This document shows, piece by piece, positions 25,925 through 43,679 of a stretch of DNA of 64,000 bases. Numbering within the stretch: the first letter of the stretch is position 1; each line of letters opens with the position of its first letter. Source of the stretch: Bacteriovoracia bacterium (GTDB lineage Bacteria; Bdellovibrionota; UBA1018; CAIPTA01); contig JBFWVL010000001.1 of the NCBI GenBank assembly GCA_050246755.1, positions 1,216,001 to 1,280,000 of the forward strand. The letters run 5' to 3'. The translations under genes and the position numbers were made by a program. The notes under the pieces are model-generated. The model saw nothing but the letters and a program-made list of their open reading frames with translations. It made no database searches and was not told the DNA's origin.

Positions 25925-25933
25925 AAATTTTCC

Positions 25934-27037: not shown

Positions 27038-27040
27038 GAC

Positions 27041-28459
27041 TTAACTCACTTTCCGCGACGATTCGATCAACGCGCCGATCAGGCTCGCGAGGGGCCGGCT
27101 CATGCCGATCGGCTGCGTAACGGCCTGGAAGGTTTGCTGCATTCCCTGATAATTCACGAAAGTTCCGGCTTTTTCGTACGTCGAGAGACCGGGCAATACG
27201 AATTGGTAACCGAGAAGCTCTTCCTTCAAAAACAACCCGATCGCCACCGCTTTTTTCGCTTTCTTCGCCAGCCCGTAAGGGGGGCGCACTTTGCCCGCGC
27301 TCACGAAGAAGCAAAGGTCGAATTTCGCCGGATCGAATTCCGCCGAAGCCTTAAATCCCACGGCTTCGAGTCCCTTCAAATTAGGAGATTTATCTTTACG
27401 GCGCAGCAAGTGATCGAGCGGCTTATCTTCTGAGCTCGAATTCACGGTTGGGCTATAGGAAAAATAGGCGGCGTTTGGAAATGCTTTCTTCAGCGCATGA
27501 GCTTCTTCTTGCGTGGCATCAGCGCACACGAAGAAAGCAATCGACTTGGCGCCATCCATCATTTCTTTTACGGCGGGAAGCGCTTCGTTCCACATCATGC
27601 CCTTAGGATTTCCGCCACGGAGATCCGTAGGCCCCAGTACGCGAGAGGGAGTGTGCACGTGGTGAAAGCCGTAACGGCCTTCATCGCACATCCACCACTT
27701 ATTCACTTCCATATTCACGCGCGGCTCCAGACGGAAAACCACGCCGGAATCCTGCGAACCAAGAATATTACAGCCCTGCGCACAGCCGTCGCATACGCTT
27801 TCGGCCGTTTTGAGATACCACACGCGCTTTTTGAAGCGGAAATCCTTGGTGGTGAGAGAGCCCACAGGGCAAACATCAGCCAGCCCGCCGGCATAAGCAG
27901 TTTGCAGGGGCTTATCATCGATCGTGATGATCTCAGTGCTGTTTCCGCGCTGCTCGGCGATCATTTCGTGGATACCACCCACTTCGTCGCAATAGCGGAT
28001 GCAGCGGGTGCAGTGAATGCAACGATTCATATTCTTCTTGATCGAAGGGCCCATATCCACATCGATAAAGGTACGGCGGAAAAACTGGTTCCGGGTGTCT
28101 TCGGCGCCGTGGTTATAGCTATACTCCTGAAGGCTGCATTCTCCGGCCTGATCGCAAATCGGGCAATCGAGCGGATGGTTAGCGAGCAAAAATTCCTGCA
28201 CGCCACCCACAGATTTTTTTACTTTTTCGGAAGTGGTGGAAATTTTCATTCCATCGGCGCAGGGCGTGGAACAAGCGGTCACCAGTTTCTTCTGGCCCTC
28301 CACTTCCACCAAGCACATTCGGCACTGTGCCACGATCGAAAGACCGTCGTGGTAGCAATAGCGGGGAATATGATTGTTTTTGGCACGGTCGGTAGCCTGG
28401 ATGATCTTCTCACCCGGCTTAAACTCTACCTGCACTCCGTCGACTATAATGTTCGGCAT
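27041..28459 (-). CDS. nuoG: NADH-quinone oxidoreductase subunit G (short, 472 aa)
   Basis: PRYCYH..CRMCLVE..TAC (N1b), HPLDCPICDQAGEC (N5), CIHCTRC..CPVG (N4) and CDGCAQGC..MCDEGR (N7). Confidence 0.92.
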   Translation of the reverse strand: MPNIIVDGVQVEFKPGEKIIQATDRAKNNHIPRYCYHDGLSIVAQCRMCLVEVEGQKKLVTACSTPCADGMKISTTSEKVKKSVGGVQEFLLANHPLDCPICDQAGECSLQEYSYNHGAEDTRNQFFRRTFIDVDMGPSIKKNMNRCIHCTRCIRYCDEVGGIHEMIAEQRGNSTEIITIDDKPLQTAYAGGLADVCPVGSLTTKDFRFKKRVWYLKTAESVCDGCAQGCNILGSQDSGVVFRLEPRVNMEVNKWWMCDEGRYGFHHVHTPSRVLGPTDLRGGNPKGMMWNEALPAVKEMMDGAKSIAFFVCADATQEEAHALKKAFPNAAYFSYSPTVNSSSEDKPLDHLLRRKDKSPNLKGLEAVGFKASAEFDPAKFDLCFFVSAGKVRPPYGLAKKAKKAVAIGLFLKEELLGYQFVLPGLSTYEKAGTFVNYQGMQQTFQAVTQPIGMSRPLASLIGALIESSRKVS

Positions 28460-28473
28460 TTTATTCCTTTAAT

Positions 28474-29763
28474 CTAGTGGCTATAGCTCGAGCTTCCAAA
28501 AGGGCAACGCTTCTCGTTCACGTGTTGCTCGTATTCGGTTCGGAATTTTTTCACCATTGAACGCAACGGCCAGGCAGTGGCTTCGCCGAATGCACAGATC
28601 GTGGTTCCGTCCATGTTATTGCAAATGTCTTCGATCAGATCGAGGTCGCCAATATTCCCCTCGCCCCGCTCGAGGCGCAGGTGAAGATCTTTGAGCCACA
28701 TGGAGCCCTCGCGGCAAGGTGTACATTGTCCGCAGCTTTCCACTTGGTAAAAATGCGCGGTGCGGATCGCCACCTTGAGAATACAAGTAGCGTCGTCTAT
28801 TACCATAATGCCGGCCGAGCCGAGCATGGAACCAGCCTTCGCCAAAGAATCAAAATCCAGGTTCACACTGCATTCTTCGGCCGTGAGCACCGGCGAGGAG
28901 GATCCGCCGGGAAAAGCCGCCTTCAGCTTCCGGCCCTTCCAAATTCCCCCACAATCTTCGTTGATCAACTGCATGAGAGGGTAACCGAGGGGACGCTCGT
29001 ATAGGCCAGGACGGTTTACGTGTCCAGAAATACAGAACAGCTTCATGCCGTGATTGCGCTCGGGACCGAACTGCTTGAACCAGGCGGCGCCGCGATTAAT
29101 GATCATCGGAATGCAGGCTAAGGTTTCCACGTTATTCACTACCGTGGGGCAACCGAACAAACCGATAGCGGCCGGGAAAAAAGGAGGCTTGATTCGCGGT
29201 TCGCCCCGCTTTCCCTCGAGGGAATTCAGGAGCGCGGTTTCTTCTCCGCAAATATACGCGCCGGCCCCGCGATGCACGATCATGTCGAGCTGGTATCCCG
29301 TGCCGTTCACGTTTTTTCCAAGCAAACCGGCCTTATAGGCTTCTTCGATCGCTTTATCGAGGATCTTTGCCTCCTTCACGTATTCACCGCGGATATAGCA
29401 GTAAATCATATGAGCATTGATCGCCATCGCGGCGATGATGGCACCTTCGATCATGAGATGAGGCTGGTAAGCCATGATCGCGCGATCCTTAAAAGTGCCG
29501 GGCTCAGATTCGTCGGCGTTGATCACGAGATACTTCGGTTTATCTGAATTCTTCGGAATGAATCCCCATTTCGTGCCGCAAGGAAATCCGGCGCCCCCGC
29601 GCCCGCGAAGGCCGCTTTCCTTTACCTCGGCCAAAACTTTTTCTGGCCCCATTTCCACGGCCTTCGGAAGAGCCGTATAACCCGATTCATTCTTTTTATA
29701 GGCGTCGAGGCCTTCCACACCGGCCTGGCCGTAATATTTAGAGAATACGATTTCCTGCTGCAT
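28474..29763 (-). CDS. nuoF: NADH-quinone oxidoreductase subunit F
   Basis: GRGGAGFP, NADESEPGTFKDR, GAGAYICGEETA and SCGQCTPCREG..ICAFG. Confidence 0.98.
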   Translation of the reverse strand: MQQEIVFSKYYGQAGVEGLDAYKKNESGYTALPKAVEMGPEKVLAEVKESGLRGRGGAGFPCGTKWGFIPKNSDKPKYLVINADESEPGTFKDRAIMAYQPHLMIEGAIIAAMAINAHMIYCYIRGEYVKEAKILDKAIEEAYKAGLLGKNVNGTGYQLDMIVHRGAGAYICGEETALLNSLEGKRGEPRIKPPFFPAAIGLFGCPTVVNNVETLACIPMIINRGAAWFKQFGPERNHGMKLFCISGHVNRPGLYERPLGYPLMQLINEDCGGIWKGRKLKAAFPGGSSSPVLTAEECSVNLDFDSLAKAGSMLGSAGIMVIDDATCILKVAIRTAHFYQVESCGQCTPCREGSMWLKDLHLRLERGEGNIGDLDLIEDICNNMDGTTICAFGEATAWPLRSMVKKFRTEYEQHVNEKRCPFGSSSYSH

Positions 29764-30236
29764 TAGCGGAACTCCTCAAGCACTTTATCGAGCTGTTTCT
29801 CATCGAAATTCTCGTGGTAGTCGTCGTTGATCTGGCAAACCGGCGCCGTGCCGCAAGATCCGAGGCACTCCACTTCGGAAATAGTGAACATTCCATCCTT
29901 GGTGGTACCACCCAGAGAAACACCGCACTTCTTTTCCGCGCGGTGAATGAGGTCTTCGGAGCCGCGCAGCCAGCATGCGATGTTATTGCAAAACTGGAGG
30001 TTATACTTGCCCACCGGCTTGGTGTGGAACATGTGATAAAACGTAACCACTTCTTTCACCCGCGTTTTCGGAATCGCGAGAAAATCGGCCACATCTTGCA
30101 TCGTATCGTCGGAGATCCAGCCGCGGTCTTTTTGGGCCGCATGCAGAGCCGGTAAGAGCATGGCTAGCTTATTGGGATACATTCCTTGAATGCGGTCCAT
30201 CTCGGCGTAAAATTCGTTTCCAAATTTCTTTTCCAT
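29763..30236 (-). CDS. nuoE: NADH-quinone oxidoreductase subunit E
   Basis: VVTFYHMF and the 2Fe-2S ligands CNNIAC..ECLGSC. Confidence 0.96.
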   Translation of the reverse strand: MEKKFGNEFYAEMDRIQGMYPNKLAMLLPALHAAQKDRGWISDDTMQDVADFLAIPKTRVKEVVTFYHMFHTKPVGKYNLQFCNNIACWLRGSEDLIHRAEKKCGVSLGGTTKDGMFTISEVECLGSCGTAPVCQINDDYHENFDEKQLDKVLEEFR

Positions 30237-30237
30237 A

Positions 30238-31479
30238 TTAGCGGTCTAACTCCCCGGCAATAATATTCACGGAACCAATCACGGCGATCACGTCGCCCAC
30301 GTTTTCACCCTTCACCATCTCGTCTACGGGCTGGAACATGAAGAAAGAGGGGGCGCGGATACGCAAGCGGTAGGCCTTGGGACCGCCGCGGCTGATCGCG
30401 TAGAAGCCCATTTCGCCATTTGGGCCCTCCATAGGGCAGTACGCTTCTCCTGGAGGAACATCGAAACCTTCCATGAAAAATTTGAAATGGTGGATCAAGG
30501 ACTCCATCGAATTATAAACGCGTTCCTTTTCCGGAATCTTCACGCGTTTATCGTCGGCCCAGATTGGGCCTTTGGGCATTTTCTGCGCGATCTGGCGGAG
30601 CATGCGGATGGATTCGAAAATTTCCGCCATACGCACCAGATAGCGATCGTACACGTCGCCGCCCTTTGCCACCGGAACGTCGAACTCCAGCTCGCGGTAC
30701 GCAAGATAAGGGCGGTCCCTGCGTAGGTCGATATTTACGTTGGAAGCGCGGAGGCAAGGGCCCGTCATCGAGTAAGCGAGTGCCTGTTCGGCGGTGAAAA
30801 CGCCCACACCGCGGGTACGATCCACCCAGATACGGTTGTTCGTGAGCAGCTTGTCGAGCTCCTTAAAACATCTTTCGGTTTCATCAAGCCAAGCGTTCAG
30901 ACGGGGAATGAAGCCATCGGGCAAATCACCAGAAAGACCGCCCACGCGGGTATAGGTGGTGGTCAACCGTGACCCACAGAGACTTTCGATCAAACTATAA
31001 GCTTCTTCGCGCTGGTGGAATCCGATGAGAAAGTAGGTCATGGCGCCAAGGTCGAAGGCATTGATGCCCACGCAAATGATATGATCAATGATCCGCGCCA
31101 TTTCGCAAACCATCGTGCGAATCCACACGTTGCGCGGAGGAATCTCGATGCCCATGAGCTTCTCGATCGTGGTCACGTAGGCCACGTTATTCTGCAGGGC
31201 CGAACAATAATTCAGGCGGTCCGTATAGGGAATAAACTTATGGTAGGTTTTCACCTCGCCGAGCTTTTCCATCCCGCGATGCAAATAACCGATCTCACAT
31301 TTGCTCTCCTCCACCACTTCGCCGTTGAGCCGGCAAACGATACGAAGCGTTCCGTGGGTCGCCGGATGCTGGGGACCGATATTGATAAGCATCTGCGAAC
31401 TCTCGAAGATATCGCCATTATCGTCGTCTTCGAAGGCATCGCCTTTTCTAGGGAGCTGGAGTCCGGTTAGTTTATCCAT
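30238..31479 (-). CDS. nuoD: NADH-quinone oxidoreductase subunit D
   Basis: GPQHPATHG, GYLHRGMEK, DRLNY, FDLGA and C-terminal GELDR. Confidence 0.97.
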   Translation of the reverse strand: MDKLTGLQLPRKGDAFEDDDNGDIFESSQMLINIGPQHPATHGTLRIVCRLNGEVVEESKCEIGYLHRGMEKLGEVKTYHKFIPYTDRLNYCSALQNNVAYVTTIEKLMGIEIPPRNVWIRTMVCEMARIIDHIICVGINAFDLGAMTYFLIGFHQREEAYSLIESLCGSRLTTTYTRVGGLSGDLPDGFIPRLNAWLDETERCFKELDKLLTNNRIWVDRTRGVGVFTAEQALAYSMTGPCLRASNVNIDLRRDRPYLAYRELEFDVPVAKGGDVYDRYLVRMAEIFESIRMLRQIAQKMPKGPIWADDKRVKIPEKERVYNSMESLIHHFKFFMEGFDVPPGEAYCPMEGPNGEMGFYAISRGGPKAYRLRIRAPSFFMFQPVDEMVKGENVGDVIAVIGSVNIIAGELDR

Positions 31480-32132
31480 TATTCACGCTCCAATACGGTC
31501 TTGGCCGAGCCTGGAGAGCCGATTGTTTTTTCTTTACGCAGCTCGTGCCGCGACATTCTCTCCGCCGATGGATCAAGACCGAAGCTATCGGTGGATGCCG
31601 ATCCCTCGAAGCGCTGGTAGCGCTTAATGGGATAGTCCTTACGCTGGGGATGCCCCACCCAGCGCTCGTCGAGCAGAATGCGGTGCAGGTGGGGATGGCC
31701 CGAAAATCTCACGCCGTACATATCGAACACCTCGCGCTCCAGCCAATTGGCGGCCCTCCAGATGCCCACCACCGAGGGAGTTTCTTCTTCTTCTCTCACC
31801 CGCACCTTAATACGGATGCGGTCGTGGTTCTGCAGGGAAAAAAGCTGGTACACCACCACGAAGCGGTGCGCCCCGCCGGGGTTCTTCAAAGTGCCGAGGC
31901 CGTAGTCCGCGATCTTATCCAGCGGAGGATTATCATCGTAAGCGGTGAGATCAGAAAGGAAGCTGTACTCGAGGCCCTCTTCCGTGCGGATCGACTGCAA
32001 AAATTCTACGATTTTTTCTTTGCGCACGAAAAAAATAGGATCATCGGTATTTTCCGATACTACTTCCTCAATGGCATCGCCGTAACGGGCTTTGATCCTG
32101 TCGATTTTTTCCTTCGGAAAATCCATCTTCAT
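31479..32132 (-). CDS. nuoC: NADH-quinone oxidoreductase subunit C
   Basis: [33 protein letters not shown] and GHPQRKDYP. Confidence 0.95.
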
Positions 32133-32611
32133 TGCAGCATCGCCTTACTTTTTTTAATTTTTTCCTGGAGCCGCATCACGCCGTGAATCACGCCCTCAGG
32201 AGAGGGCGGGCAGCCGGGAATATAGATGTCCACCGGAATTACTTCATCCGCACCCTGCATAACACTGTAGGTATCGAAAATGCCGCCGGAAGAAGAACAA
32301 GCGCCCATTGCGATCACCCACTTAGGATCGGCCATTTGCTCATAGAGAGTCTTGAGCACGGGGCCCATCTTCTCCGTGATCGTGCCGGCGATGATCATCA
32401 TATCGCTCTGACGAGGAGAAAAGCGCACCACCTCGGCGCCGAAACGCGCAAGATCGTAGTCGGCCGAAAGCGTGGCCATCATCTCGATTCCGCAGCAGCT
32501 CGTACCGAAAGGATAGGGCCAGAGAGAGTTGGCTCTCGCCCAATTTACAAAATCTTCCAGTCTAGTAGTTAAAACATCCGGTGCGCCGTCTTTTGGCATA
32601 TCGCCCCCCAT
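32129..32611 (-). CDS. nuoB: NADH-quinone oxidoreductase subunit B
   Basis: [23 protein letters not shown] and IPGCPP. Alternative start at ATG 32599. Confidence 0.97.
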
Positions 32612-32636
32612 TCAGGCCGCTTCTGCGGCCCAGAAA

Positions 32637-32999
32637 CTATTCCCACTCGAGCCCGCCGCGGCGCCATTCGTATAAAAAGGCCACGGTAATCATGGTCATG
32701 AAAAATAGCATTACGCCGAGGATGAAAAAGTTCACCCCGAGAAATTTCCGGTACGCGAGGGCCCACGGAAAGAGCAGGGCTACCTCCACATCGAATAATA
32801 GAAAAGAAAGTGCCACGAGATAGAAGCGAACCGAAAAACGCTTTCTCGCGTCTCCACTAGGAGGTACGCCGCATTCGTATACGGAATTTTTGAATTTATT
32901 AGGTCGCTTTGGTCCCAAGAGAGCCGCGCCGAAAATTACGGCGAACGAGATGCCTAACCCCACGAGAAACAAAAGCAAAACCGGAAAATACCCGGACAT
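32637..32999 (-). CDS. nuoA: NADH-quinone oxidoreductase subunit A
   Basis: YECG, RFYLVALSFLLFDVE and YEWRRGGLEW. Confidence 0.96.
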   Translation of the reverse strand: MSGYFPVLLLFLVGLGISFAVIFGAALLGPKRPNKFKNSVYECGVPPSGDARKRFSVRFYLVALSFLLFDVEVALLFPWALAYRKFLGVNFFILGVMLFFMTMITVAFLYEWRRGGLEWE

Positions 33000-33041
33000 G
33001 CTGCACCCCCTAATGTGTGCAAAAAATTTAGCATGTTGGAT

Positions 33042-34496
33042 TTATTTAAGAAAGACTTTTGCAGTTTCGAAAAGTAAGGCAAATACCCGATGCCAAAGGA
33101 ATCCAAGCGCGGCGAGAGCAACGATTGCGACGGCTAACGAGAGCCACTCCAACGCGCCGTACCGAAACAGAACAAGAGGCGCAGTGTTTGTCGACGACGA
33201 AGCGCGTTGGCGGAATAGTAAATCCGTTCCCACGCGAATGGAAATTAGCGAAAGGGTGGCCACCAGCAGTACTTCGGCCGCGAGGAAAAATAGGGATTTC
33301 TGTTCCATCATCGCCGCCAAAAGATTCAATGCCATGGGAAATCCAGGTAAACCAGGAATGCAAAGCGGGCTGGCGAGCGCCAATAATAGCAATAACCCCG
33401 AAGAGCGAAACGTGCGCGCGGCACCGTAGACATCTTTTAAATTTTCGCCGCCGGCACTTTCTTGAAATCGTCCCCAGTTAAAACCCAAAAGACTGGTCCA
33501 AACAAAAACCGAGGCAAAAGCATAGGTAATGGAGGATGCACTAAGTACGGTCGGCAATGCACCGGCCACTAAAATGGCCGACCACTGCGCGCCCACTAGG
33601 GCACTGAAAAGACGCTTTGAATTTTCCTGCGTGAGCGCCACTAGGGCCAGCCAAAAGCCACCGCTAAGCCCACAGAGCTGTAACGTGCGCAGTCCCTCGG
33701 AAACTTCCCCGGGCCGAGCCTTGCCAAAAACCTCCACTCCCATTTTCCACAAAGCGAGGGTAACCGTTCCCTGCCAGATCACGGAAAGGGTTACCACTAC
33801 CGGCCAGGGCATTCCTTGGTCGCGATCCACGTGCGCAAAGTGAAATGGAAAGAGTCCGGCGGCCATCACGAAGGGCAGGCAAAGCGCAAACACCACGAGA
33901 AGCGCGCTGAGGGAATAAATCGATTGCGCGTGAAGAAAAGAAGAGATCACATCATAGTGAACGCCGCCGGCGACCACGGCCAGAGCCGTAGCCGCGCCAA
34001 ACCCACCCGCCATTACCAGAGAAGCTTGAATCCAGTACTTCAAGACGGCTTCCCCTTCACCGCGACCCCGAAACGCCAGGCCGCCGAGGAAAAGAGATAA
34101 CCACGATCCGCAAACCAGAAGGATAATCGAAAGGGTCATCTGTCGGGAAAGCAGCAAGAGATCACAAAGCATTACCAGCGTGGAAAGCAGGAAAAGAACT
34201 TCGTGTTTTCTTTTTGCGGGTAACTCTTTGGTGGCCACAACGCCGCGCCCCAGGAGAAGGGCCGCCACGAAAAGAGCCGCACGCGGCAAACGGAAAAGCG
34301 GTTGATCTTCCAGAAGCCCGAACCAGATTTGGGACTGATCGGCCGATTGGCCCACGGCCAAGGTTGCCATTGCCGCCAAAAATCCGAGGCTTGAAAGAAA
34401 TTCAATCGCCGTGCGCGAGCGAGAACTGCGGTTAAAAAGCAGCGCCACTCCTTGCGCTAGCGTGGCTAATCCGACGACTAAAATCGATAAGGGCAT
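33042..34496 (-). CDS. Divergent NuoN-like antiporter-fold subunit
   Basis: About 14 hydrophobic segments. EAVLKYW, FPFHFAHVDRDQGMP and ALTQENSKRLF align by eye to NuoN EASVKYF, PFHMWAPDVYEGAP and QTNLKRLM. Confidence 0.8.
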   Translation of the reverse strand: MPLSILVVGLATLAQGVALLFNRSSRSRTAIEFLSSLGFLAAMATLAVGQSADQSQIWFGLLEDQPLFRLPRAALFVAALLLGRGVVATKELPAKRKHEVLFLLSTLVMLCDLLLLSRQMTLSIILLVCGSWLSLFLGGLAFRGRGEGEAVLKYWIQASLVMAGGFGAATALAVVAGGVHYDVISSFLHAQSIYSLSALLVVFALCLPFVMAAGLFPFHFAHVDRDQGMPWPVVVTLSVIWQGTVTLALWKMGVEVFGKARPGEVSEGLRTLQLCGLSGGFWLALVALTQENSKRLFSALVGAQWSAILVAGALPTVLSASSITYAFASVFVWTSLLGFNWGRFQESAGGENLKDVYGAARTFRSSGLLLLLALASPLCIPGLPGFPMALNLLAAMMEQKSLFFLAAEVLLVATLSLISIRVGTDLLFRQRASSSTNTAPLVLFRYGALEWLSLAVAIVALAALGFLWHRVFALLFETAKVFLK

Positions 34497-34508: not shown

Positions 34509-35963
34509 CTAATTGCCATTTAATCCTTTCAGCAGGGCCGCCACCGATACTCCCATGGGCCCCAGAAGCAGGCTCGGCAAAACCCCTAAAACCAAAAGCA
34601 CCAGACCAAGCGGTGCAATCGCAAGAATCTCTTCCCAAACCAAGTCGTGAAACTCTCCGCGATCTCCATCACCGGCCCCGGCGTCGAGACGAAAAAACAT
34701 AATGCTCATCCCAGCAAAAGCAACCACCGGAACTGCTAGCGTAACCACGAGCAGCGGCCAGCTATGCACCCCGCTCAGCGACCAAATAACGAAAAGTACC
34801 CCGTAGAATCCAATGGAAACCGGCAGAAAGAGCGCAAAAAGGGAGGCCGCCGCCGTGCTGAGCGCAAAGGCAGGAAATTCACGGATTCTTTGGAGCGGTA
34901 AGGGGAATTTTCTTCTCTCGTGACAAGCAAGCACGAAGAGCATGAACGGAATAGAGAGCGTTTGGAAAAATAGGAGAATAAGAGAGCCGTGCCACCCTTT
35001 GGGATTTAAATTGAACAAGCCGATGGCGATGAACGAGCAAACGGTCTGCTGCAACCAAAATACGCGATCGCGCGCCTGGCGTGCGCCGAGAAAATTCAGC
35101 GCACAGTAAAGGGCGCCGATGGAGAAAAAGGCCAGAAGGTAATGGCCGAACCGCAAAAGCTCGCCGGGAAAAAGCTCCACCACGAAACGAGAGAGCAAAG
35201 TAAATCCCAGAAGCGGCTGCAGCGCTAGCGGCACCGCTTTTTCTACGGATTCCATTTCGAATATCCGGCGGGTGCTGCCGTGAAAGGGAAATATTCCGGC
35301 GCCGATCCCGAATGCCAGCAGCAATAATCCAAAGCCGATCGACCCCGGCAGTACCATATAGGTATCGCCCGATAGTCGGAACCACTCCCCGATGGAACCA
35401 CGGAATCCCTCCGAGAACGCCAGCACGCAAAGCAATAACGACAATGAAGCGATGGTAGAGAGAAAAGCCGCCTCGCGTACCGGCTCAATGCGATTTTCCT
35501 TTGCGTCTACCCCGGAAAATATAAATCGGGGGAGTAATGCGCCGGCAAAGAAAACAGAGAAAAGCAAAAGGTGATCAGCGCCTAGGGCACCGAGCACACA
35601 AGTCAAGTAGGCGGAAAGGCTGGCTACCGAGGCGCGGGATTTCTCGAGCATTCCCCTCGCCAGAAAGTGATAGCAAACGGTTACGGAAGAGACCGCTAGC
35701 GCCAATATTCCCGAATGAAATACCCAGCGGAGGCCCGTGTGATTCGACCAAGCGCTCTGGGCGAGAATCGCCGGAGAAAGCACGCTTCCGGCGTATTCGT
35801 TGGGCGAATAGAAGCCGATGGCCAAAAACAGAAAACAAACCCAAGAGAGAAGGTGCACCAACAACGAAAATGCCCAGAGCTTCTTCCCGCGCACGGGACC
35901 GCAAGCCGCCACCGTGACGAGCAGAGGCAAAAACGTAGCGATTAGTCCCGCCCAGCCTTTCAC
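34509..35963 (-). CDS. Divergent NuoM-like subunit (M2)
   Basis: DHLLLFSVFFAGALLPRF, IFPFHG, LPVSIGFYG and DLVWEEILAIAPL..LGVLP resemble NuoM. GTG start overlaps the upstream TGA (GTGA). Confidence 0.75.
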   Translation of the reverse strand: MKGWAGLIATFLPLLVTVAACGPVRGKKLWAFSLLVHLLSWVCFLFLAIGFYSPNEYAGSVLSPAILAQSAWSNHTGLRWVFHSGILALAVSSVTVCYHFLARGMLEKSRASVASLSAYLTCVLGALGADHLLLFSVFFAGALLPRFIFSGVDAKENRIEPVREAAFLSTIASLSLLLCVLAFSEGFRGSIGEWFRLSGDTYMVLPGSIGFGLLLLAFGIGAGIFPFHGSTRRIFEMESVEKAVPLALQPLLGFTLLSRFVVELFPGELLRFGHYLLAFFSIGALYCALNFLGARQARDRVFWLQQTVCSFIAIGLFNLNPKGWHGSLILLFFQTLSIPFMLFVLACHERRKFPLPLQRIREFPAFALSTAAASLFALFLPVSIGFYGVLFVIWSLSGVHSWPLLVVTLAVPVVAFAGMSIMFFRLDAGAGDGDRGEFHDLVWEEILAIAPLGLVLLVLGVLPSLLLGPMGVSVAALLKGLNGN

Positions 35964-37303
35964 AGGATCCCCCCGGCCAGCTGCGTGGCCACGACAATGA
36001 AACACATCAGGAAAACTCCATACCCAGCGAAAGCGGCCGGGGCCGACTCGAGAGAGGATTCCGCTCCCGGCTCAGGAGGACGATCATCCACAAAAATTCT
36101 TCGGCAGATATGCACGTTGGCGCAGAAGTAAAAAAACCAAAGCAAGCCGAATACGATGCCGTAGCTGATACCGAGATCGAGGGAACGAGCGCCGATCCCA
36201 CTGAAAATCTGAAACACCGGGGTGCCGGGCACTCCGAGGATAAGCGCGAAAAGAATTCCCACGAAAACCTTCTGTAGCGGGCGCACCACTTTGACCACCG
36301 AAGCATAAAGTACTAGCCCGGTGAATACTGGTACGAAGAGACAGGTAAAGTACGCGGATAGTACTAAGCTTGTCTTCGAGACTCCCACCGAAACCAAAAT
36401 GAGCGAAAAGAAAAAACTCGGTAGGCTTCCCAGCATTTTTCGCCTGGATCCGGCCGCAAAAAGACCGCTGATAGAAAAGGCGCAGCCGGAGATTCCCAGT
36501 AGATACAAAGCCAGCTTCTGCTTCCACCCCATATCGGGATAAACCACAGAAAAAAGCGTGGATATCTTCAAGGCCACCGCGCTGATGAAGGTAACCAAGG
36601 TAACGGTTACGCCTTCCGGAAGATTTTCCACCGCCATACTGAACCATCGGGACCATGGCGGAAGCGGAATCGAGAGCACTACAAGGCCCAGCCAGATAAA
36701 TAAACCGAGCGAAGAACCGGAGCGGGGGCCGAATAGCATATCCTTCGCGCCGAATTCCACCACGCCCCATACAATCATCAGCAGTCCCAACAAGAAGTAG
36801 AGGCTATACATACGGCGGGAAATTCTATCTCCCATCTCACGACTGGCCCCGGCAATGGCAAAGCGAATTAGGTAGAAGAACACCGCCGCCGCCAGCAAAA
36901 GCAAACCCCCAGTAGCTACCGCGTTGTTAGAAATTATAAAAAGGCTGGTAAACGCCTGCGCCAGCGATAGCAGCACGCTTACCACTCGCAGGCCGCCCGC
37001 CACCGCCCCCATCGCATGGGCAAAAAGAAAGCAGAGTTCTGCGGTGAGCAAAAAACCAAGCCGGAAAGAATCAAGCGAGAGCACGAATTCGAGCGGATAA
37101 CCATCAGCAAGCGAGGTAGAAATTTCAATTACCGCTCCGCCAAATACAACCGGGCGTAAAAGCACGATGAGAAGTAGAGCGCGAAGGCTCGACGCGATGA
37201 TCCCCGGGGAAACGAGCCTTTTGTGAAATGCATTCGGCAAAGGTATCGCGGCGGCGAAGGGCAAAACTATATACAGTAAGAATATTAGCCGTTCTAAGCT
37301 CAT
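35960..37303 (-). CDS. Divergent NuoM-like subunit (extra, M1)
   Basis: LSLDSF, IPLPPWSRW, SRRKMLG, LGVPGTPVF and RRIF resemble the NuoM/MrpD scaffold. ATGA overlap. Confidence 0.65.
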   Translation of the reverse strand: MSLERLIFLLYIVLPFAAAIPLPNAFHKRLVSPGIIASSLRALLLIVLLRPVVFGGAVIEISTSLADGYPLEFVLSLDSFRLGFLLTAELCFLFAHAMGAVAGGLRVVSVLLSLAQAFTSLFIISNNAVATGGLLLLAAAVFFYLIRFAIAGASREMGDRISRRMYSLYFLLGLLMIVWGVVEFGAKDMLFGPRSGSSLGLFIWLGLVVLSIPLPPWSRWFSMAVENLPEGVTVTLVTFISAVALKISTLFSVVYPDMGWKQKLALYLLGISGCAFSISGLFAAGSRRKMLGSLPSFFFSLILVSVGVSKTSLVLSAYFTCLFVPVFTGLVLYASVVKVVRPLQKVFVGILFALILGVPGTPVFQIFSGIGARSLDLGISYGIVFGLLWFFYFCANVHICRRIFVDDRPPEPGAESSLESAPAAFAGYGVFLMCFIVVATQLAGGIL

Positions 37304-39048
37304 TTAGCCCCCAGGAGAAAGAGCACTCCGGCGAAAAGCGTGAGCACGGTTCCAAAAAACAAATAAAAGCGAATATTTCCGGAATGAAGAAAACGCATCA
37401 GCCGAGAAAGCGAGGATCCGTAAGCGAGAAAACCACCCGGAAATTTCTCGGCAAAGAGCATCCGATCCGTCTCTTGCAGGGCACTGGCAGCGCGAATATT
37501 TATGGTTCCAGCTCTAAGCGCAATCCAGTCCATTCCTTTTTCGGGCGCAAGCACGGCCGCCTGATTCCAGCGGACAACCGCAGGATCGATTCGCGGAAAA
37601 AGATCTTCCATTTTCTTTTCCTTATTGGCGCTCCAAATACTAAGGCGAGAATTAGCTCCAAGGAGCATACCCGCCAACCCTCCCACCAGCAGGGCGGCCC
37701 CGCGCACTACAAGGGAAATATCGGATAAGAAATCTATCGGGAACTGAAGCAGCCCGGACAACCCATCGTAGGCCCGGAATAGAGCGGCCAGTTGAATCAG
37801 GATAACCAGTGACGCGGGCAAAACCGCGGAAGCGAAAGTAAAATTATTTTCCTTCTCTTTGTTCTGCCGCAGAGAACCCACCAATGCCTTCACGGCCACC
37901 AGAGAAAGCAGAAAAGTGAGTATTCCCATGATGGCTATTTTCAAGATCGTTTCCCGATTCTCGGTATGCGCCGAAGGTACGCTCGTAAAAGGAACCACGC
38001 CGGAGATGATTCCCAGCAAAAACAGTGTGGCTAAGAATATGAGCGCCGTTCGCCACGCTTGGGCACTTTGGCGGGCGAAGCGGAGCAAAAGGCTTAGGGC
38101 GTAACAAGAAAGCAGGCCCATCGCTTCGAAGGCTCCCCAGCTTAATTCTTCCGGCTTTAAAGACGAGAAGCGCAGAAAGAGGATGTATCCAAAAATGCCG
38201 AATAACATCCAAAAGCTGGCGCTAAGCGTGGTGGAGGCGAGAAAAGACAAAGCCGAAAACAGTGCCGTGGCAACTGCAAATAGCGCCGAAAGCGGGATCC
38301 ATAATTCGCCCGACATGTCCTCGTGGATAACTCTACCCAGCAGAAAAAAGGCCGTACCCGCCTGAATCAACGCGAGCGGAACATAGCGCCACTCGCTGAA
38401 ATTATGCTTAGAAAGCATGAATGCCATCACGTAAAGCACCATGCCGAGCAGAACGACGGAGCTATTGGTAAAGAAGCTCGCCGCGGTGAGGCCGAGCATC
38501 GCGATCAATCCGAGAAATAAAAAACTATTTCGCTTAAAATAGGAAATTCTCTCGAGCTCGCCCTCTGTGCCGCCCATTTCTAGGCTGAAAGAATGCAAGA
38601 GGAAAACGGTGATTTCGATGAACATCAGCGAAAGGAGCGCGTTCTCGCTCAAGTAGGCGAGGGCCAGGAATAAGAACGAACCGCTTAGGAATAGAAAGCG
38701 CAGCGTACCCCTCGCGCCGCCGAAGGAAGAAGCGCCGTCGAACATGACCAAACCAAGCAAAACGGAGGCAGAAAGAAAAATCCAAACGTACCGCACCCAA
38801 TACATGAGTAACGACGGCTCAAAATAGCCGGAAGTGTCGGTGGAAAGGGGCAATAGAAATTCCATTTTCACCGGAAGCTCAAACTGAAAAATCCCGATTA
38901 GGGAGGCGAGCAGCATCGTGCCGAACAAAATAAGACCGCCACGCTTCTCGGAATCGGAACGGCGATCGCTCTTAAGCGCAAACAAAACCAGCGCCGCAAG
39001 CGGGGCGCAGAATATAAGCAGTGGCACTACGATATTCCCAAAATTCAT
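37300..39048 (-). CDS. Divergent NuoL-like subunit
   Basis: SENALLSLMFIE (TM5 Glu), a long amphipathic C-terminal helix, and LMRFLHSGNIRFYL matching canonical LRLMHTGRLEHYL plus a final TM. Confidence 0.75.
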   Translation of the reverse strand: MNFGNIVVPLLIFCAPLAALVLFALKSDRRSDSEKRGGLILFGTMLLASLIGIFQFELPVKMEFLLPLSTDTSGYFEPSLLMYWVRYVWIFLSASVLLGLVMFDGASSFGGARGTLRFLFLSGSFLFLALAYLSENALLSLMFIEITVFLLHSFSLEMGGTEGELERISYFKRNSFLFLGLIAMLGLTAASFFTNSSVVLLGMVLYVMAFMLSKHNFSEWRYVPLALIQAGTAFFLLGRVIHEDMSGELWIPLSALFAVATALFSALSFLASTTLSASFWMLFGIFGYILFLRFSSLKPEELSWGAFEAMGLLSCYALSLLLRFARQSAQAWRTALIFLATLFLLGIISGVVPFTSVPSAHTENRETILKIAIMGILTFLLSLVAVKALVGSLRQNKEKENNFTFASAVLPASLVILIQLAALFRAYDGLSGLLQFPIDFLSDISLVVRGAALLVGGLAGMLLGANSRLSIWSANKEKKMEDLFPRIDPAVVRWNQAAVLAPEKGMDWIALRAGTINIRAASALQETDRMLFAEKFPGGFLAYGSSLSRLMRFLHSGNIRFYLFFGTVLTLFAGVLFLLGAK

Positions 39049-39063
39049 CCGTTAAAACTCCAG

Positions 39064-39384
39064 CTAATGCCGCAAACTATCTTCTTCATCCACATCCAGC
39101 GTTCCGCGAAATCGGCTACAGCGGTGCAATACCAGCAGACCCACCGCCACGAGCGCGGGAACCATTCCCAATGCCACTAACGAGAGCACGATGAGATCTC
39201 CGCCGCCGGAAGAAAAATATTGCGAGAATAAAAATCCACATGCCACCACGGCCTTAAGTGCGGTGGCCTGACCCACCAGCCCCCATGCCGCCACCCGGCG
39301 CAGCGCGATGGCCGAAAGGCCCGCCACAAATACGGCCAAGAGCAAGATCACGTTAATTTTGTTTGCCACCGAGGTTAAATCCAT
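39064..39384 (-). CDS. Divergent NuoK-like subunit
   Basis: ATG at 39384 (TAATG overlap) gives 106 aa with 3 TMs. FVAGLSAIALRR and GTLDVDE..SLR match the NuoK pattern. Confidence 0.75.
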   Translation of the reverse strand: MDLTSVANKINVILLLAVFVAGLSAIALRRVAAWGLVGQATALKAVVACGFLFSQYFSSGGGDLIVLSLVALGMVPALVAVGLLVLHRCSRFRGTLDVDEEDSLRH

Positions 39385-39878
39385 TACCGCTCCCTCCGCA
39401 CAAGGAAGAATCCTCCGGTAACGATTACGATCAGGAAAAGCAGCGGAATCACCGCTAGCAGCCAGTCGGAGGTCCAGATTTTTTCGTGGAGCAGAGACAA
39501 ACTTGGCGCCGGCGTCACCCCCGGTGGCATCAACTCCTCGAGCTCCAAGATCGCCAGCGCGCCGGTGACCACCGAGCAAAGGCCTAGCCATAGGAAAAAC
39601 AGGCGATACAGCCAATCGGCACGGCGATTGCGGGCCGGGCGCGCGGGAAGCAGTTCTTGGGTGCGAAAATAAAGATAAATAGCGAAATCGGCCGAAAGAA
39701 ATACCGCAATCATCATAATCCCAAAGTATCCGCCACTCATGAGTTCTACGGCCGCGCCCAAGCCAATGGAGCAAAGAATAGATCCCCAGAGTAAACGTTC
39801 GGTGGAATCGGCGGTGATCGCCATAATCGCGGAAATCAATGCCAACGCCAAACAGCTGCCAACAAAAAATGAGATCAT
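39384..39878 (-). CDS. Divergent NuoJ-like subunit
   Basis: 164 aa with 5 TMs, ALISAIMAIT, and C-terminal IWTSDWLL..IVIVTGGFFL. Sits between the I-like and K-like genes. Confidence 0.72.
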   Translation of the reverse strand: MISFFVGSCLALALISAIMAITADSTERLLWGSILCSIGLGAAVELMSGGYFGIMMIAVFLSADFAIYLYFRTQELLPARPARNRRADWLYRLFFLWLGLCSVVTGALAILELEELMPPGVTPAPSLSLLHEKIWTSDWLLAVIPLLFLIVIVTGGFFLVRRER

Positions 39879-40348
39879 CGTCTCACCTCGTAAGTACGAA
39901 TACGGGTGATGTCTTTATCGCTCTTCTGGCCGCCACCACGAAATACGGCGATTAAATCTTTCGTGCTCTCGGTAACGATTTCAAATTCTTTGGAATAGGA
40001 AAGGCTAGCCTCGGGACAGATCTCGATACAAACACCGCACGAAAAGCATTTTCCCAAATGAATATTGAATTCTTGCACGCGAATCGTACCGTCGCGCAGG
40101 TTCTCGGAAGTAAAATCAATTGCCTTCACCGGACAGGCCGGAACGCAAAGACCGCATCCACTGCACTTCGATAAATCATTGGTCACGTAGCCCTTATAGC
40201 TAGTGAACATGTCTAATGGGGCCTTGGCGGACACTAGGTCTGGATACTTTTCCACGACGCTTTTGTAACGATGCTTCGTACGGCGCAGAAAGCCGAAATT
40301 GATTTTCAGCGTGCTCTTGAGGGCGTTAATTACCTGCCTGACCTTCAT
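39875..40348 (-). CDS. NuoI-like 2[4Fe-4S] subunit
   Basis: EKYPD, CSGCGLCVPACP and CFSCGVCIEICP. ATG 40348 overlaps the upstream stop (ATGA). Confidence 0.88.
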   Translation of the reverse strand: MKVRQVINALKSTLKINFGFLRRTKHRYKSVVEKYPDLVSAKAPLDMFTSYKGYVTNDLSKCSGCGLCVPACPVKAIDFTSENLRDGTIRVQEFNIHLGKCFSCGVCIEICPEASLSYSKEFEIVTESTKDLIAVFRGGGQKSDKDITRIRTYEVRR

Positions 40349-41280
40349 CCGCGCACCCCCACCCAAACGGCTTCGAGAAAGAATCCGATGAGACATAGAC
40401 GCAATAGCCAGCGGGCCGCCAATTCACTGGCGTCGGCCGAGCGAATCTTAGGAAAACTAGCCTGCAGAAGGGTGAACACGAATATTCCGGCCGCCACTTT
40501 CAGCGGAAAGAGAACTTTCACGATGAGCCCGCTGGCCCCTCCGCAAAAAACGTATACCCAGAAACAAATCAAAGAGAATACCCACATTTTCTGCACGAAA
40601 ATCGTGATGTATTGCATCGAGTGATTGAGGCTCTGCTCATCTTGCAGCTGCACTGGACTTTCCGTGGCGAAAAGGAAAATGGAGCAGAAGGCGGTTATGC
40701 CGCAAAGGAAAAGACCCGGACTGCTCAGCAGCGCGTGATAGGGGAAATAAATCTGAAAATCCGAAATCGCGCTCAAGTTGAGCTGACCCACCCTTAGGGT
40801 TACGGCGAAAACCGATAGCAGCAATCCCGAAACTCCCATCGCCCGAAGCAAAAGCCGGCGGCGGCGGTCGAAACGCTCGCGTGAATCGGCGGTGGCATGC
40901 ACCAGCAGCGCCTCTAAAGCGGCCGCGATCATCGGAAAAAGCAGCAGGAGTGGAAGATCAATTTGATCGCCGCCCTCCGGGTAAGTTACCGCCAGCAAAG
41001 CCAGCAGGAATACTATGGGAAGAATTCGCCAAACCAAGGAGGCGAGACGTATCCGAAACGGCAGGGCCAATAAATCCGCCGGCTTCTTTTTCCGGGTTTT
41101 CTGAAAATCTTTCCAGACCTGAAAAAAATCCGTTTGCCCATGCCGGCCGGGCCCGTCGCGATGCTGCACGCGAGCAGCGACGAAGCGTTCGCAAAAAAGA
41201 AGGAAGAAGGTTCCCCCAAAGAGAAAGAGTAGCGAGCCCACGAGCGCCGCCCCGGCGAGCAAGAAATCTAGCGCACTCAT
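40345..41280 (-). CDS. Divergent NuoH-like subunit
   Basis: ERFVAARVQHRDGP, FFQVWKDFQK and SFPKIR match NuoH. The acidic TM5-6 loop is absent. Confidence 0.82.
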   Translation of the reverse strand: MSALDFLLAGAALVGSLLFLFGGTFFLLFCERFVAARVQHRDGPGRHGQTDFFQVWKDFQKTRKKKPADLLALPFRIRLASLVWRILPIVFLLALLAVTYPEGGDQIDLPLLLLFPMIAAALEALLVHATADSRERFDRRRRLLLRAMGVSGLLLSVFAVTLRVGQLNLSAISDFQIYFPYHALLSSPGLFLCGITAFCSIFLFATESPVQLQDEQSLNHSMQYITIFVQKMWVFSLICFWVYVFCGGASGLIVKVLFPLKVAAGIFVFTLLQASFPKIRSADASELAARWLLRLCLIGFFLEAVWVGVRG

Positions 41281-42380
41281 TTGTCTACCTCCGAAAAGGA
41301 GATATCGAGCGAATGAATCACGAGGAAAGCGTCTTCCGCGTGAATTCCGCGCAGCAGGCGCGGCAGCACCTGAACCGCCATAGCCGAAGGGCAGAAAAAA
41401 CTTACTTGCGACGGCTGCGAACGGCCATCGGATTCAACCATCGCGTAGATAGCTCCGCGAGGGCCCTCCACGCCACAAACTGCTTTTCCGGGCGCCGGGC
41501 GCACGTCTAGACCCACCCGGATGCGGTGGTTACCCGAAGGAATATGGCGAAATACGGATTCGATGAGCTGAGCCGACTGCAAAATTTCCCGCTTGCGAAT
41601 GTGTGCGCGGTCGAACGCGTCTCCCAGATAATTCCTCGAGGTGTCTAGCATCATCTCTGTGCCACGATAAGCGCCGTAGGGGCGCGAAACCCGAAGATCG
41701 CAGTCCGCTAAGCCGCTCGCACGCGCGTTAGGACCAGTAATATTCCAATTTTTAACCATCGCCGCATCTAACTGGCCCAAACCCCGGGTGCGCTTTTCGA
41801 AAAACGGGTGCGTAAGGAGGGAGCTTTCTAGATCCGGCAAAAATTCTCTTAAGCTGGCCACGGCTTTTTCGATTTTAAAAAACCATCCGTCGGTGGCGTC
41901 GCTGATCACTCCACCAAGGCAAATAGAGCCGAAACCAAGGCGCGAACCGCAATACATCTCAAATATATCCGCGAAGCGCTCGCGTTCCCGGAGGCAGTGA
42001 TTCATGATCGCAGCCTGCCCGGCAGCCCTGGCCAAATTTCCGTAGTAATGAAGATGGCTGGCAATTCGGTTGAGCTCGAGCAGAATTAGGCGAATCTGCT
42101 CAGACCGAGCCGAGATTTCTATGCGCAGCAAGTCTTCGCAGGCCGAGGCAAGAGCGAAATTGAAGGCCGGAGCCGCGAGATAATCGAGGCGATCCATGTA
42201 ATTTAGGGCTTGGGCTAAAGGTAGCTGCAATGCGATCGCTTCCAGGCTACGGCGTCCATAACCCACGGTCATCCGGGCGTCGGCCACTAAGCCACCGTCT
42301 TCTTCGAGCTTCAGCCCGAAAGCACCGATTCCCTGCGTTCCCGCAAGATACATAGGAGTATAATCTAAAGTGGTCGCCAC
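41277..42380 (-). CDS. Divergent NuoD-like subunit
   Basis: MDRLDY, IRLILLELNRIASHL, ERERF, CGSRL, TGPNARASG, EGPRG and SLDISFSEVDK. No NiFe CxxC motifs. Probable GTG start at 42380 after GAAAGGGA. Confidence 0.88.
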   Translation of the reverse strand: MATTLDYTPMYLAGTQGIGAFGLKLEEDGGLVADARMTVGYGRRSLEAIALQLPLAQALNYMDRLDYLAAPAFNFALASACEDLLRIEISARSEQIRLILLELNRIASHLHYYGNLARAAGQAAIMNHCLRERERFADIFEMYCGSRLGFGSICLGGVISDATDGWFFKIEKAVASLREFLPDLESSLLTHPFFEKRTRGLGQLDAAMVKNWNITGPNARASGLADCDLRVSRPYGAYRGTEMMLDTSRNYLGDAFDRAHIRKREILQSAQLIESVFRHIPSGNHRIRVGLDVRPAPGKAVCGVEGPRGAIYAMVESDGRSQPSQVSFFCPSAMAVQVLPRLLRGIHAEDAFLVIHSLDISFSEVDK

Positions 42381-42757
42381 GTGGCGTCCCTTTCTGGAAT
42401 CATGCCGGCGAACTCTACTCCGTTGAAAGTGCGTAGCTCTTCTTCCCACCAAAGACTAAACGGCCAGAGGGCGCTGGGGCGCGGAAAGGCCGAAGAAGGA
42501 GCAACTTCCAGAATAAAAAAGATCGGTTCATTTCCGCACGTAAGCAGCAGCTCGATGGAAAGATTCGTGCCCGCGCCGGCCGTCGATAACCCATGCAAAG
42601 CGGGGCGTTCGCCAGAGGGTAGCGCGCCCCAATGCTCGAGCAATTTTGCCAGCTCCGAAGTTCCCGCCTGGACGCGAGAAACTTTATCTCCGGCCGCAGG
42701 GGTGCCCGGCACCTTCACGATGCCTCCCCAAATATTTTTTTCTCCGCCTGATCTCAC
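42365..42757 (-). CDS. Divergent, C-terminally shortened NuoC-like subunit
   Basis: SALWPFSLWWEEELRTFNGVEFAG matches [27 protein letters not shown] overlap. Confidence 0.72.
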   Translation of the reverse strand: MRSGGEKNIWGGIVKVPGTPAAGDKVSRVQAGTSELAKLLEHWGALPSGERPALHGLSTAGAGTNLSIELLLTCGNEPIFFILEVAPSSAFPRPSALWPFSLWWEEELRTFNGVEFAGMIPERDATWRPL

Positions 42758-43203
42758 GACGCGGACCTCCGGATTTTTTCCTGCAATTTAATCAGCGCAT
42801 GAATCAATGACTCCGGTCGTGGAGGACAGCCCGGAATAAAAAGATCCACGGGAATTATGGCCTCGAGACCCGGGATACGATGTTTTCCTTCGGCCGAAAA
42901 CATTCCACCGGTGCTGGCGCAACTGCCAACGGCCACCACGAATTTTGGATCGCGCATCTCGGCGTAAATCTTTTTCAGTTCTTCGGCAATGCCGGGAGTT
43001 ACCGGGCCTGAAACAAAGAGCACATCGGCGTTACGATGATCGGTCACAATCCGGCAACCGAGCCTCTCCCAATCGAATCTCGGTCCGGAAGCAGCTTCCA
43101 CTTCCAGGGTACAGCAAGAAAGCCCCACATGATAAACCCATAACGAATCCGCGAGCGCGGATTTTGGCTGAGAGGGAGCGGATTCTTTTTGGATCTCCAT
43201 CAT
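42754..43203 (-). CDS. NuoB-like N2 [4Fe-4S] subunit
   Basis: SLW..GLSCCTLE, RFDWERLG, PKFVVAVGSCASTGG and PVDLFIPGCPPRPE. Confidence 0.92.
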   Translation of the reverse strand: MMEIQKESAPSQPKSALADSLWVYHVGLSCCTLEVEAASGPRFDWERLGCRIVTDHRNADVLFVSGPVTPGIAEELKKIYAEMRDPKFVVAVGSCASTGGMFSAEGKHRIPGLEAIIPVDLFIPGCPPRPESLIHALIKLQEKIRRSAS

Positions 43204-43577
43204 TGGTTTTCCTTATCGGGCCACTCGAGATTGTCTATCCACTTCAGGTAGCTTTTACGGCCGCCGTACCAAAGTAGGGCCAGCATCAACGCGGGAAAAA
43301 TCAAAACCTTTCCCATCACCAGCCAGCGGTCGTGCATTTCGAGGGAAACTATTTTTTGCCGGTACGAAGCCCACATCGGCAAAGAGAGTGCGATTCCGCA
43401 CCAGAGCATTAGCAGCCAAAGAACGTGATAGAATGAACGGAACGCACCTTCCGGGGCGCCGTTCCCTGGCTCACGAATTCCCTGAACCTTTTCGAGACGA
43501 TCCCATAGCACGAGCACCAAAATGGCCACAAAAAGCAGCACTGCTGGAATTAAAAAGAGGAGAAATCTAGAATACAT
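43200..43577 (-). CDS. Divergent NuoA-like subunit
   Basis: Three TMs with SFYHV..LPMW and WYGGRKSYLKW (cf. YEWRRGGLEW). ATG 43577 gives 125 aa; alternative starts at 43616 and 43622. Confidence 0.72.
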   Translation of the reverse strand: MYSRFLLFLIPAVLLFVAILVLVLWDRLEKVQGIREPGNGAPEGAFRSFYHVLWLLMLWCGIALSLPMWASYRQKIVSLEMHDRWLVMGKVLIFPALMLALLWYGGRKSYLKWIDNLEWPDKENQ

Positions 43578-43679
43578 CTGCCGTCCTTGAGTTTCAGTGC
43601 CTCTTCCCACAGCCATATTCACCCGGCGGCAATGCCGATCCGGATCCTTGAAATGCCTAATGTGAGAACTGACCTAGGA

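Follow-up and report, generated by a model that had tools for sequence, protein, structure and literature searches.

The stretch of DNA analysed here, a window of 64,000 nucleotides (nt) from a Bacteriovoracia bacterium (assembly GCA_050246755.1, contig JBFWVL010000001.1, positions 1,216,001-1,280,000; the positions given below are those of the window), carries two complex I gene sets lying back to back on the minus strand. A second set at 33042-43622 comes first and is followed by a canonical nuoA-N operon, which includes NuoE, F and G, whose NuoD carries the motifs GPQHPATHG, GYLHRG, DRLNY and FDLGA, and which we used as an internal control. The second set consists of twelve genes in the order A', B', C', D', H', I', J', K', L', M', M'' and N', which is the Nuo order without E, F and G, a feature of NUO11 complexes, with one extra M. 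Its genes are tightly packed, most stop/start pairs overlapping or lying 12-15 nt apart. D' is followed directly by H', with no E, F or G gene in between and with the D' stop and the H' start overlapping by 4 nt, and the absence of an EFG module, already pointed out in an earlier account made from the letters of this DNA alone (the sequence-only reading), thus holds for the second cluster. That reading was concerned with positions 39875-43203 of the minus strand, which encode the B', C', D', H' and I' homologues, and it proposed that electrons can still reach the iron-sulphur (Fe-S) cluster N2 while the acceptor or the coupling differs.

For the source genome, we found that all predicted ligands of clusters N2, N6a and N6b are present in B' and I'. 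The I' protein has both CxxCxxCxxxCP motifs, CSGCGLCVPACP and CFSCGVCIEICP, and B' has SCC, GSCAS and PGCPP, which line up with the four cysteines that bind N2 in the NuoB of the same window (pattern CCCCP); on both proteins the sequence-only reading was right. Among the relatives of I', the two CxxCxxCxxxC motifs occur in 48 of 48 full-length proteins, the 49th being a fragment of 96 amino acids (aa). The 78 clusters of the B' family comprise 60 with CCCCP, one with CCCCA, two N-truncated fragments and 15 in which between two and four of the N2 cysteines are missing (CSCSP six times, YSCSP and GDSNP twice each, and CNCSP, CSSSP, FSCNP, GDCSP and SECSP once each), and the outgroup NuoB sequences show CCCCP in 42 of 42 cases. 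The 15 proteins form a single clade (support 97 in the Shimodaira-Hasegawa-like approximate likelihood ratio test, SH-aLRT), with terminal branch lengths resembling those of their N2-keeping neighbours, in a quick IQ-TREE tree for which the careful search was unfinished and from which two fragments shorter than 125 aa were left out. In these N2-lost proteins (proteins P0280-P0335), the rest of B' is well conserved. One of the genomes concerned belongs to the same genus as the source: at its locus, L005, B' (L005:9187-9621) reads FSCNP, all 12 genes are intact and both I' motifs are kept. The loss of N2 in this clade, the intact L005 included, argues against N2-dependent chemistry as the function under selection. 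The C-terminal tail of I', RIRTYEVRR (39875-39905; RxRTYEVRR in the family), has no counterpart in canonical NuoI, and its residues R149 and R151-R157 are invariant in an alignment of 22 sequences; this basic tail could be a docking motif, for example for an acidic electron donor.

The quinone ligands of NuoD have been named as H38, Y87 and D139 (Degli Esposti 2015, PMC4758237, in the part of the paper that deals with this subunit). Residues 1-22 of D' (MATTLDYTPMYLAGTQGIGAFG) contain no His, and alignment to Thermus Nqo4 with HMMER places Y at H34, Q at H38, A at D139, N at T135 and M at F146, with Y87 and D401 retained. At the level of motifs, GYLHRG has become GYGRRS and FDLGA has become ARAAG, with DRLDY retained, so that the translation and the alignment bear out what had been said of the His pair of GPQHPATHG, of GYLHRG and of the Asp of FDLGA. 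The family of D' consists of about 77 relatives (word-indexed search, E <= 2e-68), which are 38-85% identical and 349-370 aa long, mostly 364-367 aa. The equivalent of Asp139 is Asp in none of these 77, versus 39 of 39 canonical NuoD proteins. The loop between beta1 and beta2 holds no His in 32, one in 40 and two in five of the 77, whereas all 39 canonical proteins have two; the loss of both loop His, as first described, is therefore correct for this protein but not for the many relatives that hold one. The same applies to the Tyr of DRLDY, kept here and in 39 of 39 canonical sequences, but Tyr in only 22 of 76 members of the family, the others having Phe (43), Cys (6), Ala (3), Ser (1) or His (1). 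Family-specific features are a three-residue insertion in the loop (LAGxxGLGAFG), an Arg in place of the His of GYLHRG in 55 of 76 proteins, and an Arg or Lys beside the former Asp139 in 66 of 77. Judged from these alignments, D' has lost both His38 and Asp139 of the site that binds the quinone head group.

A residual quinone reductase, uncoupled or weakly coupled, could be considered, in which the retained Tyr and the Gln standing for His38 would serve as head-group ligands. This would be compatible with the Tyr and the Asp401 equivalent kept in D', with the ability of Gln to hydrogen-bond a carbonyl, with a His found at that loop position in 14 of 77 relatives (MAFFT alignment) and with the NuoH-like architecture of H'. 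We nevertheless regard it as improbable, given that the Tyr is replaced in 54 of 76 relatives, that Asp139 is missing throughout the family, that the loop carries the insertion, that one clade does without N2, and that a canonical complex I is already present in the cell.

The fold of D' appears to have outlived its quinone ligands. An AlphaFold2 model (predicted local distance difference test, pLDDT, 92.3; predicted template-modelling score, pTM, 0.92) matched complex I 49-kDa/NuoD chains in Foldseek with query-normalised template-modelling scores (TMq) of 0.91-0.93, and D' is confidently predicted to have a NuoD-like fold. It aligns over its full length to the models of short NuoD and of FpoD (FpoD 2e-52) and matches the window's own NuoD with 28% identity (BLASTP, E 1e-42); being closest to the short (about 365 aa) NuoD types and this distant from the host NuoD, it is not a recent copy of the host genes. 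No NiFe cysteines were found in D' at either the N-terminal or the C-terminal position, and its C-terminus, HSLDISFSEVDK, is invariant in the family. Two further features of D' were considered and rejected. The GLGAFG of the loop resembles a dinucleotide-binding GxGxxG, but it sits in the beta1-beta2 loop of a hydrogenase-type fold and is lost in distant relatives; and the cysteines of YCGSR...ICLGG do not point to a new metal site, the first Cys being present also in canonical NuoD and the second being Ser in several relatives.

The changes extend to the subunits around the quinone cavity and to the membrane arm. Profile comparison identifies C' as a homologue of NuoC (hhalign, 97% probability, E 6.5e-11, with its columns 71-125 aligned to canonical columns 96-152), and the protein stops right after the GVEFAG block, short of the canonical GHPQRKDYP, in agreement with the tail loss described from the sequence. 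In H', the acidic loop of canonical NuoH between transmembrane helices (TM) 5 and 6 aligns to ATESPVQLQDEQS---LNHS, a stretch nine residues shorter and without conservation, so the replacement of this loop was also seen correctly; the Glu of the canonical SYE motif is missing as well. H' retains R41, G43, Q54, D58 and K61 of the loop between TM1 and TM2, residues which in canonical NuoH presumably face the peripheral arm. Aligned with the window's NuoL, M and N, the proteins M', M'' and N' show no TM5 Glu, TM7 Lys or TM12 Lys/Glu (the helix names are those we take to apply), the positions of the TM7 Lys and of the TM12 Lys/Glu being uncharged in all three, as is that of the TM5 Glu in M', and L' is the sole antiporter-like subunit of the second set with the TM5 Glu, the one charge of this group that it keeps, the TM12 Lys/Asp being lost there as well; these statements on L', M', M'' and N' apply to the part of the alignment that we inspected. 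As far as the aligned residues tell, the Glu residues of canonical NuoH and the pump Lys/Glu of M', M'' and N' are lost, and a coupling that is merely different, as the sequence-only reading had it, understates the loss of the H' loop, of the SYE Glu and of these pump charges.

The relatives of D' all come from records labelled Bdellovibrionota or from unnamed metagenome records, the names being Bdellovibrionota, Bdellovibrionales and 'Proteobacteria' metagenome-assembled genomes, and one is annotated as 'subunit D-related protein'. Clustered at 50%, the tight family has about 11 representatives, beyond which lies a continuum of NuoD-like proteins of 360-390 aa, many of them without His38 and Asp139. 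For comparison of gene order we used five loci from a species-genome collection and twenty regions chosen from a search of 401 genomes of the phylum. The second cluster lies directly upstream of canonical nuoA-B-C-D-E-F in 18 of 18 loci of the same class with enough flank (the window, L004-L006 and L009-L022). The strongly derived form, with a C' of about 130 aa and an H' of about 310 aa, was found in the source family and order (window, L004-L006, L009-L012). The ten loci L013-L022, from other families of the class, have a less derived, NUO11-like cluster with a longer C that carries YPLRKSY and a longer H that carries PFD, and their D is also without His38 and Asp139, which indicates an early loss of the quinone pair, the remaining degeneration being specific to the order. 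At L014 (L014:11328-15458), canonical nuoB, nuoD and nuoF each appear as two open reading frames (ORFs), through frameshifts or assembly errors. Six loci of other classes (L023-L028) were left out; in these, the gene that best matches D' belongs to a group ordered B-C-D-I, in which NuoH does not separate D from I, and no canonical nuoA follows downstream within the fetched stretch. Possibly this is the 'split' nuo arrangement to which PMC13147790 refers in its part on nuo clusters.

The second set could also be a duplicate in decay, its genes turning into pseudogenes and its remaining motifs being leftovers. This would be compatible with a protein-level evolution 5-10 times faster than that of the canonical genes, with most subunits scoring far under their family cut-offs, and with the stepwise loss of catalytic residues. 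The second-cluster proteins of the window are indeed 29-76% identical to those of L004-L006, versus 85-97% for canonical NuoA and NuoB in the same pairs, and the nonsynonymous divergence (dN, Nei-Gojobori) is 0.25-0.9 for the second cluster, 0.04 for nuoB and 0.10 for nuoA. This explanation is nonetheless close to refuted. No stops or frameshifts were found in the 12 genes of the window, L004 or L005 (at L006 there are eleven genes, A' being cut off by the end of the contig); lengths are conserved over about 77 D', 78 B' and 49 I' clusters; dN/dS stays below 0.45 wherever it is estimable; and D', as described above, is no recent copy. The ratio is 0.06-0.43 where the synonymous divergence (dS), which is saturated, can be defined, and together with the intact ORFs this indicates that the second cluster is under relaxed but real constraint. 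The second set is no wreck but a paralogue of long standing, specific to this lineage, and its conservation spans an order-level clade within the uncultured Bdellovibrionota.

What this constraint maintains is suggested by which parts were kept and which were given up. The loss of the N2 ligands in a sister clade that contains an intact 12-gene congener argues that selection keeps the assembled architecture and not the transfer of electrons from N2 to quinone. Likewise, I' motifs that are always present, an N2 that is sometimes lost, quinone ligands that drift and pump charges that are gone fit selection for a folded particle better than selection for electron delivery. We hypothesise, with slightly less than an even chance of being right, that the second set is a catalytically degenerate complex I paralogue, retained for what it contributes in structure, assembly or regulation. 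To judge by the residues it has lost, it has probably ceased to act as a respiratory pump. Such a paralogue would neither reduce quinone at the canonical site nor pump protons, and it would be produced together with ordinary complex I as its structural, assembly or regulatory partner. The I' clusters would persist since the ferredoxin fold, with its two [4Fe-4S] clusters, needs its cysteines, a requirement that predicts the unbroken conservation of the I' motifs, and NuoB evidently tolerates the loss of N2. In the source genome, N2 would be vestigial, or would serve at best as a centre for sensing or for a low electron flux. A more specific and more doubtful version is a non-catalytic twelve-subunit 'pseudo-complex I', co-transcribed with the working complex I and paired with it or organising it, in which the Fe-S clusters are structural and N2 has been discarded in one clade.

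Several observations weigh against the degenerate paralogue. The source genome keeps all twelve Fe-S cysteines and the Tyr, so the electron path to N2 is formally intact; N2 is kept by 61 of 76 full-length B' relatives; and I' is invariant at its eight Cys and has, in addition, an invariant basic C-terminal tail. The well-ordered D' with its conserved basic residues could form a new binding pocket and not a plug. With dS saturated, the strength of selection is only roughly known, and the N2-lost clade is made up of metagenome proteins placed by a quick tree. Finally, the role as a structural partner is one that we infer by elimination, from the genes alone.

The main alternative, and that of the sequence-only reading, is an active redox enzyme in which a ferredoxin, a flavodoxin or a shared NuoEFG module would pass electrons through I' to N6a, N6b and N2, and from there to a non-canonical acceptor in a pocket of D', B' and H', with little or no pumping. 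The complete set of Fe-S ligands in the source genome, the I' motifs of the full-length relatives, the prevalence of N2 in B', the invariant tail of I', the Arg and Lys conserved at the former quinone head-group site, the intact fold of D' and the retained TM1-2 loop residues of H', with the role we suppose for them towards the peripheral arm, can all potentially be read in its favour. A shared N-module would fit well with the strict tandem arrangement beside nuoA-N. In print, NUO11 complexes without the quinone triad have been assumed to be ferredoxin-dependent oxidoreductases (PMC4758237, in the part that treats them). Still, we judge the active enzyme rather unlikely, as the N2 ligands have been lost in an entire clade that still has the complex, as the residues where Tyr87 and His38 used to be change freely, and as the analysis turned up neither a candidate acceptor or partner gene nor an enzyme that reduces ferredoxin, the upstream neighbour being mfd and POR_N being absent. 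The source genome has a single NuoF, in the canonical operon, besides two NuoB and two NuoD, and with no EFG in the second cluster NADH could enter only via a shared N-module. A structure prediction of canonical NuoG with I', as for the docking of a borrowed N-module, gave a score of 0.00, which speaks neither for nor against docking. We found no POR_N-type 2-oxoacid:ferredoxin oxidoreductase in the source genome, which is 95.7% complete, and this leaves the ferredoxin route without an evident source; flavodoxin domains were represented by a single weak match, and no NdhS/V/O-like or FpoF-like partner gene was seen beside the second cluster. Of the original proposal that electrons still reach N2 and that the acceptor or the coupling differs, the ligands and the absence of His38 and Asp139 stand, and the active redox enzyme that it took for granted lacks support in that form.

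Table 1. Features of the two complex I gene sets, in positions of the 64,000-nt window
Feature	Positions	Strand	Description
A'	43200..43622	-	NuoA-like, 140-aa ORF, true start uncertain; no Pfam/NCBIfam match
B'	42754..43203	-	NuoB homologue, 149 aa; PF01058 1.4e-28
C'	42365..42757	-	shortened NuoC homologue, 130 aa; no Pfam match
D'	41277..42380	-	NuoD homologue, 367 aa, GTG start at 42380 (called protein P0001); PF00346 7.3e-49
H'	40345..41280	-	NuoH homologue, 311 aa; PF00146 3.5e-15
I'	39875..40348	-	NuoI homologue, 157 aa from ATG at 40348; longer ORF to 40396
J'	39384..39878	-	164 aa; assigned by position and size only
K'	39064..39384	-	NuoK-like, 106 aa from ATG at 39384; PF00420 2e-5, under cut-off
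L'	37300..39048	-	NuoL-like by position; no family match
M'	35960..37303	-	first antiporter-like subunit, 447 aa; by position, no family match
M''	34509..36005	-	NuoM-like, at most 498 aa, start uncertain; TIGR01972 4.5e-22
N'	33042..34496	-	NuoN-like, 484 aa; TIGR01770 1.9e-15
Spacer between N' and canonical nuoA	33000..33041	-	42 nt
Canonical nuoA-N	19598..32999	-	internal control
Canonical nuoB	32129..32611	-	within canonical nuoA-N
Canonical nuoD	30238..31479	-	within canonical nuoA-N
Canonical nuoF	28474..29763	-	within canonical nuoA-N
Canonical nuoH	25934..27037	-	within canonical nuoA-N
Canonical nuoI	25481..25924	-	within canonical nuoA-N

The individual subunits differ in how closely they match known families (Table 1). 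For B', D' and H', the Pfam E-values exclude chance matches. Against NCBIfam, B' scores above the NuoB subfamily cut-offs (157.1 bits vs 116; 148.3 vs 142.7), and the other subunits with matches fall below theirs: D' reaches 233 of 360 bits for the NuoD equivalog, H' 39.6 of 305 for the NuoH equivalog, I' 69.4 of 113 for TIGR01971, M'' 78 of 264 for TIGR01972 and N' 57 of 333 for TIGR01770. Pfam and NCBIfam scans gave no match for A', C', J', L' and M'. The family profile of A' matched canonical NuoA weakly (hhalign probability 69%, E 4e-5, 107 columns), J' has no family match, and the comparison of the J', L' and M' family alignments with canonical NuoJ, L, M and N by hhalign, in which the templates were mostly single sequences, gave nothing significant, for J' against NuoJ as for the others; the position of A' and of J' is conserved in relatives. 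The AlphaFold2 model of L' is of low confidence (pLDDT 56) and has about 14 helices, then a helix of 45 residues and a terminal helix; NuoL/ND5/NdhF chains occupy ranks 1-29 and most of the 50 listed rows of its Foldseek search, all with E >= 1.2e-3, which lends weak support to a NuoL-like fold.

A scan of 32500-44000 for sigma-70 promoters gave 0 sites, and the 27 terminator-like sites in the same region are at chance level (shuffle mean 25.3), with none in the spacer between N' and canonical nuoA. The sequencing runs listed as containing this DNA are landfill metagenomes, one of which may be its source, and no RNA run was among them. The upstream neighbour of the second set is mfd, on the opposite strand, and mfd together with the pair of genes beyond it (284 and 308 aa), at 43737-49075 in the window and at L005:3414-8729, forms a syntenic upstream side in relatives, mfd being the divergent neighbour in the window, L005, L009-L013 and L019. 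Further out, a strongly negative guanine-cytosine (GC) skew, between -0.09 and -0.18, marks 48001-54000, a region that includes an ORF of 1003 aa (49126-52137) and its neighbours. The canonical NuoG (27041-28459) is only 472 aa long, and 462-491 aa in 14 relatives of the same class; NuoG of Thermus and E. coli has roughly 780-900 aa.

Homologues of complex I are usually sorted by substrate, and here the L-shaped architecture seems to have been selected after the quinone site, the NuoH Glu residues and the pump charges were lost. If inactive, the second set would be a rare large membrane pseudoenzyme and would raise the question of what use the shape of complex I has beyond catalysis, for example in assembly, in supercomplex scaffolding or in membrane organisation; if active, it would point to a new acceptor chemistry beside N2 without ion pumping. 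In either case, the less derived clusters of the class, the form of the source genome and the N2-less form make up a natural series for models of how the quinone site and the membrane arm are coupled.

Our literature search returned no account of a tandem, charge-stripped, partly N2-less complex I cluster, and the second set is best placed by comparison with several known systems. It resembles canonical NDH-1 (NuoA-N) in subunit order and architecture, in the B' scores above the NuoB cut-offs and in a D' fold that superposes, and it differs in having no N-module, in missing His38/Asp139, the H' Glu residues and the pump Lys/Glu, and in the scores of D', H', I', M'' and N', far under the equivalog or subfamily cut-offs. 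Unlike the group 4 [NiFe] hydrogenases (Mbh/Ech/Hyc), it has a D' without the N- and C-terminal Ni-Fe Cys pairs. With cyanobacterial NDH-1 and archaeal Fpo it shares the absence of NuoEFG and an electron entry that would be at the NuoI homologue, but those complexes have kept their pump charges and a binding site for quinone or methanophenazine. The Ehr complexes are hydrogenase-related, without Ni-Fe ligands and of unknown function, and, as they are described in the relevant part of PMC6349859, the second set is similar to them in having a large-subunit homologue without Ni-Fe ligands, no assigned substrate and antiporter-like subunits. Unlike them, it has a D' whose NCBIfam scores lie nearer the NuoD/FpoD models than the hydrogenase models and whose best structure matches are NuoD. 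It also has genes at the NuoA/J/K positions and the full Nuo order, whereas we know of no Ehr cluster with NuoA/J/K-type genes. Within Bdellovibrionota, two nuo clusters, of other kinds, are reported in the portion of the Peredibacter genome paper that deals with them (PMC13147790). The closest parallel is found in the NUO11 complexes of Sulfolobus, Nautiliales and Desulfurobacteriales, which are without H38, Y87 and D139 and are presumed to be ferredoxin-dependent oxidoreductases, like Mbx (PMC4758237). As far as that account describes them, these have in common with the second set an eleven-subunit set without NuoEFG, the retained NuoB/NuoI Fe-S ligands, a NuoD homologue without NiFe cysteines or quinone His/Asp, and a donor and an acceptor that are only presumed; the second set is set apart by its strict tandem with a full NUO14 operon, by the extra M-like gene, by the loss of the NuoH and antiporter-like charges, by the shortened C' and H' and by the loss of N2 in one clade. 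It is, in sum, a NUO11-type homologue without the quinone triad, taken much further towards loss of function.

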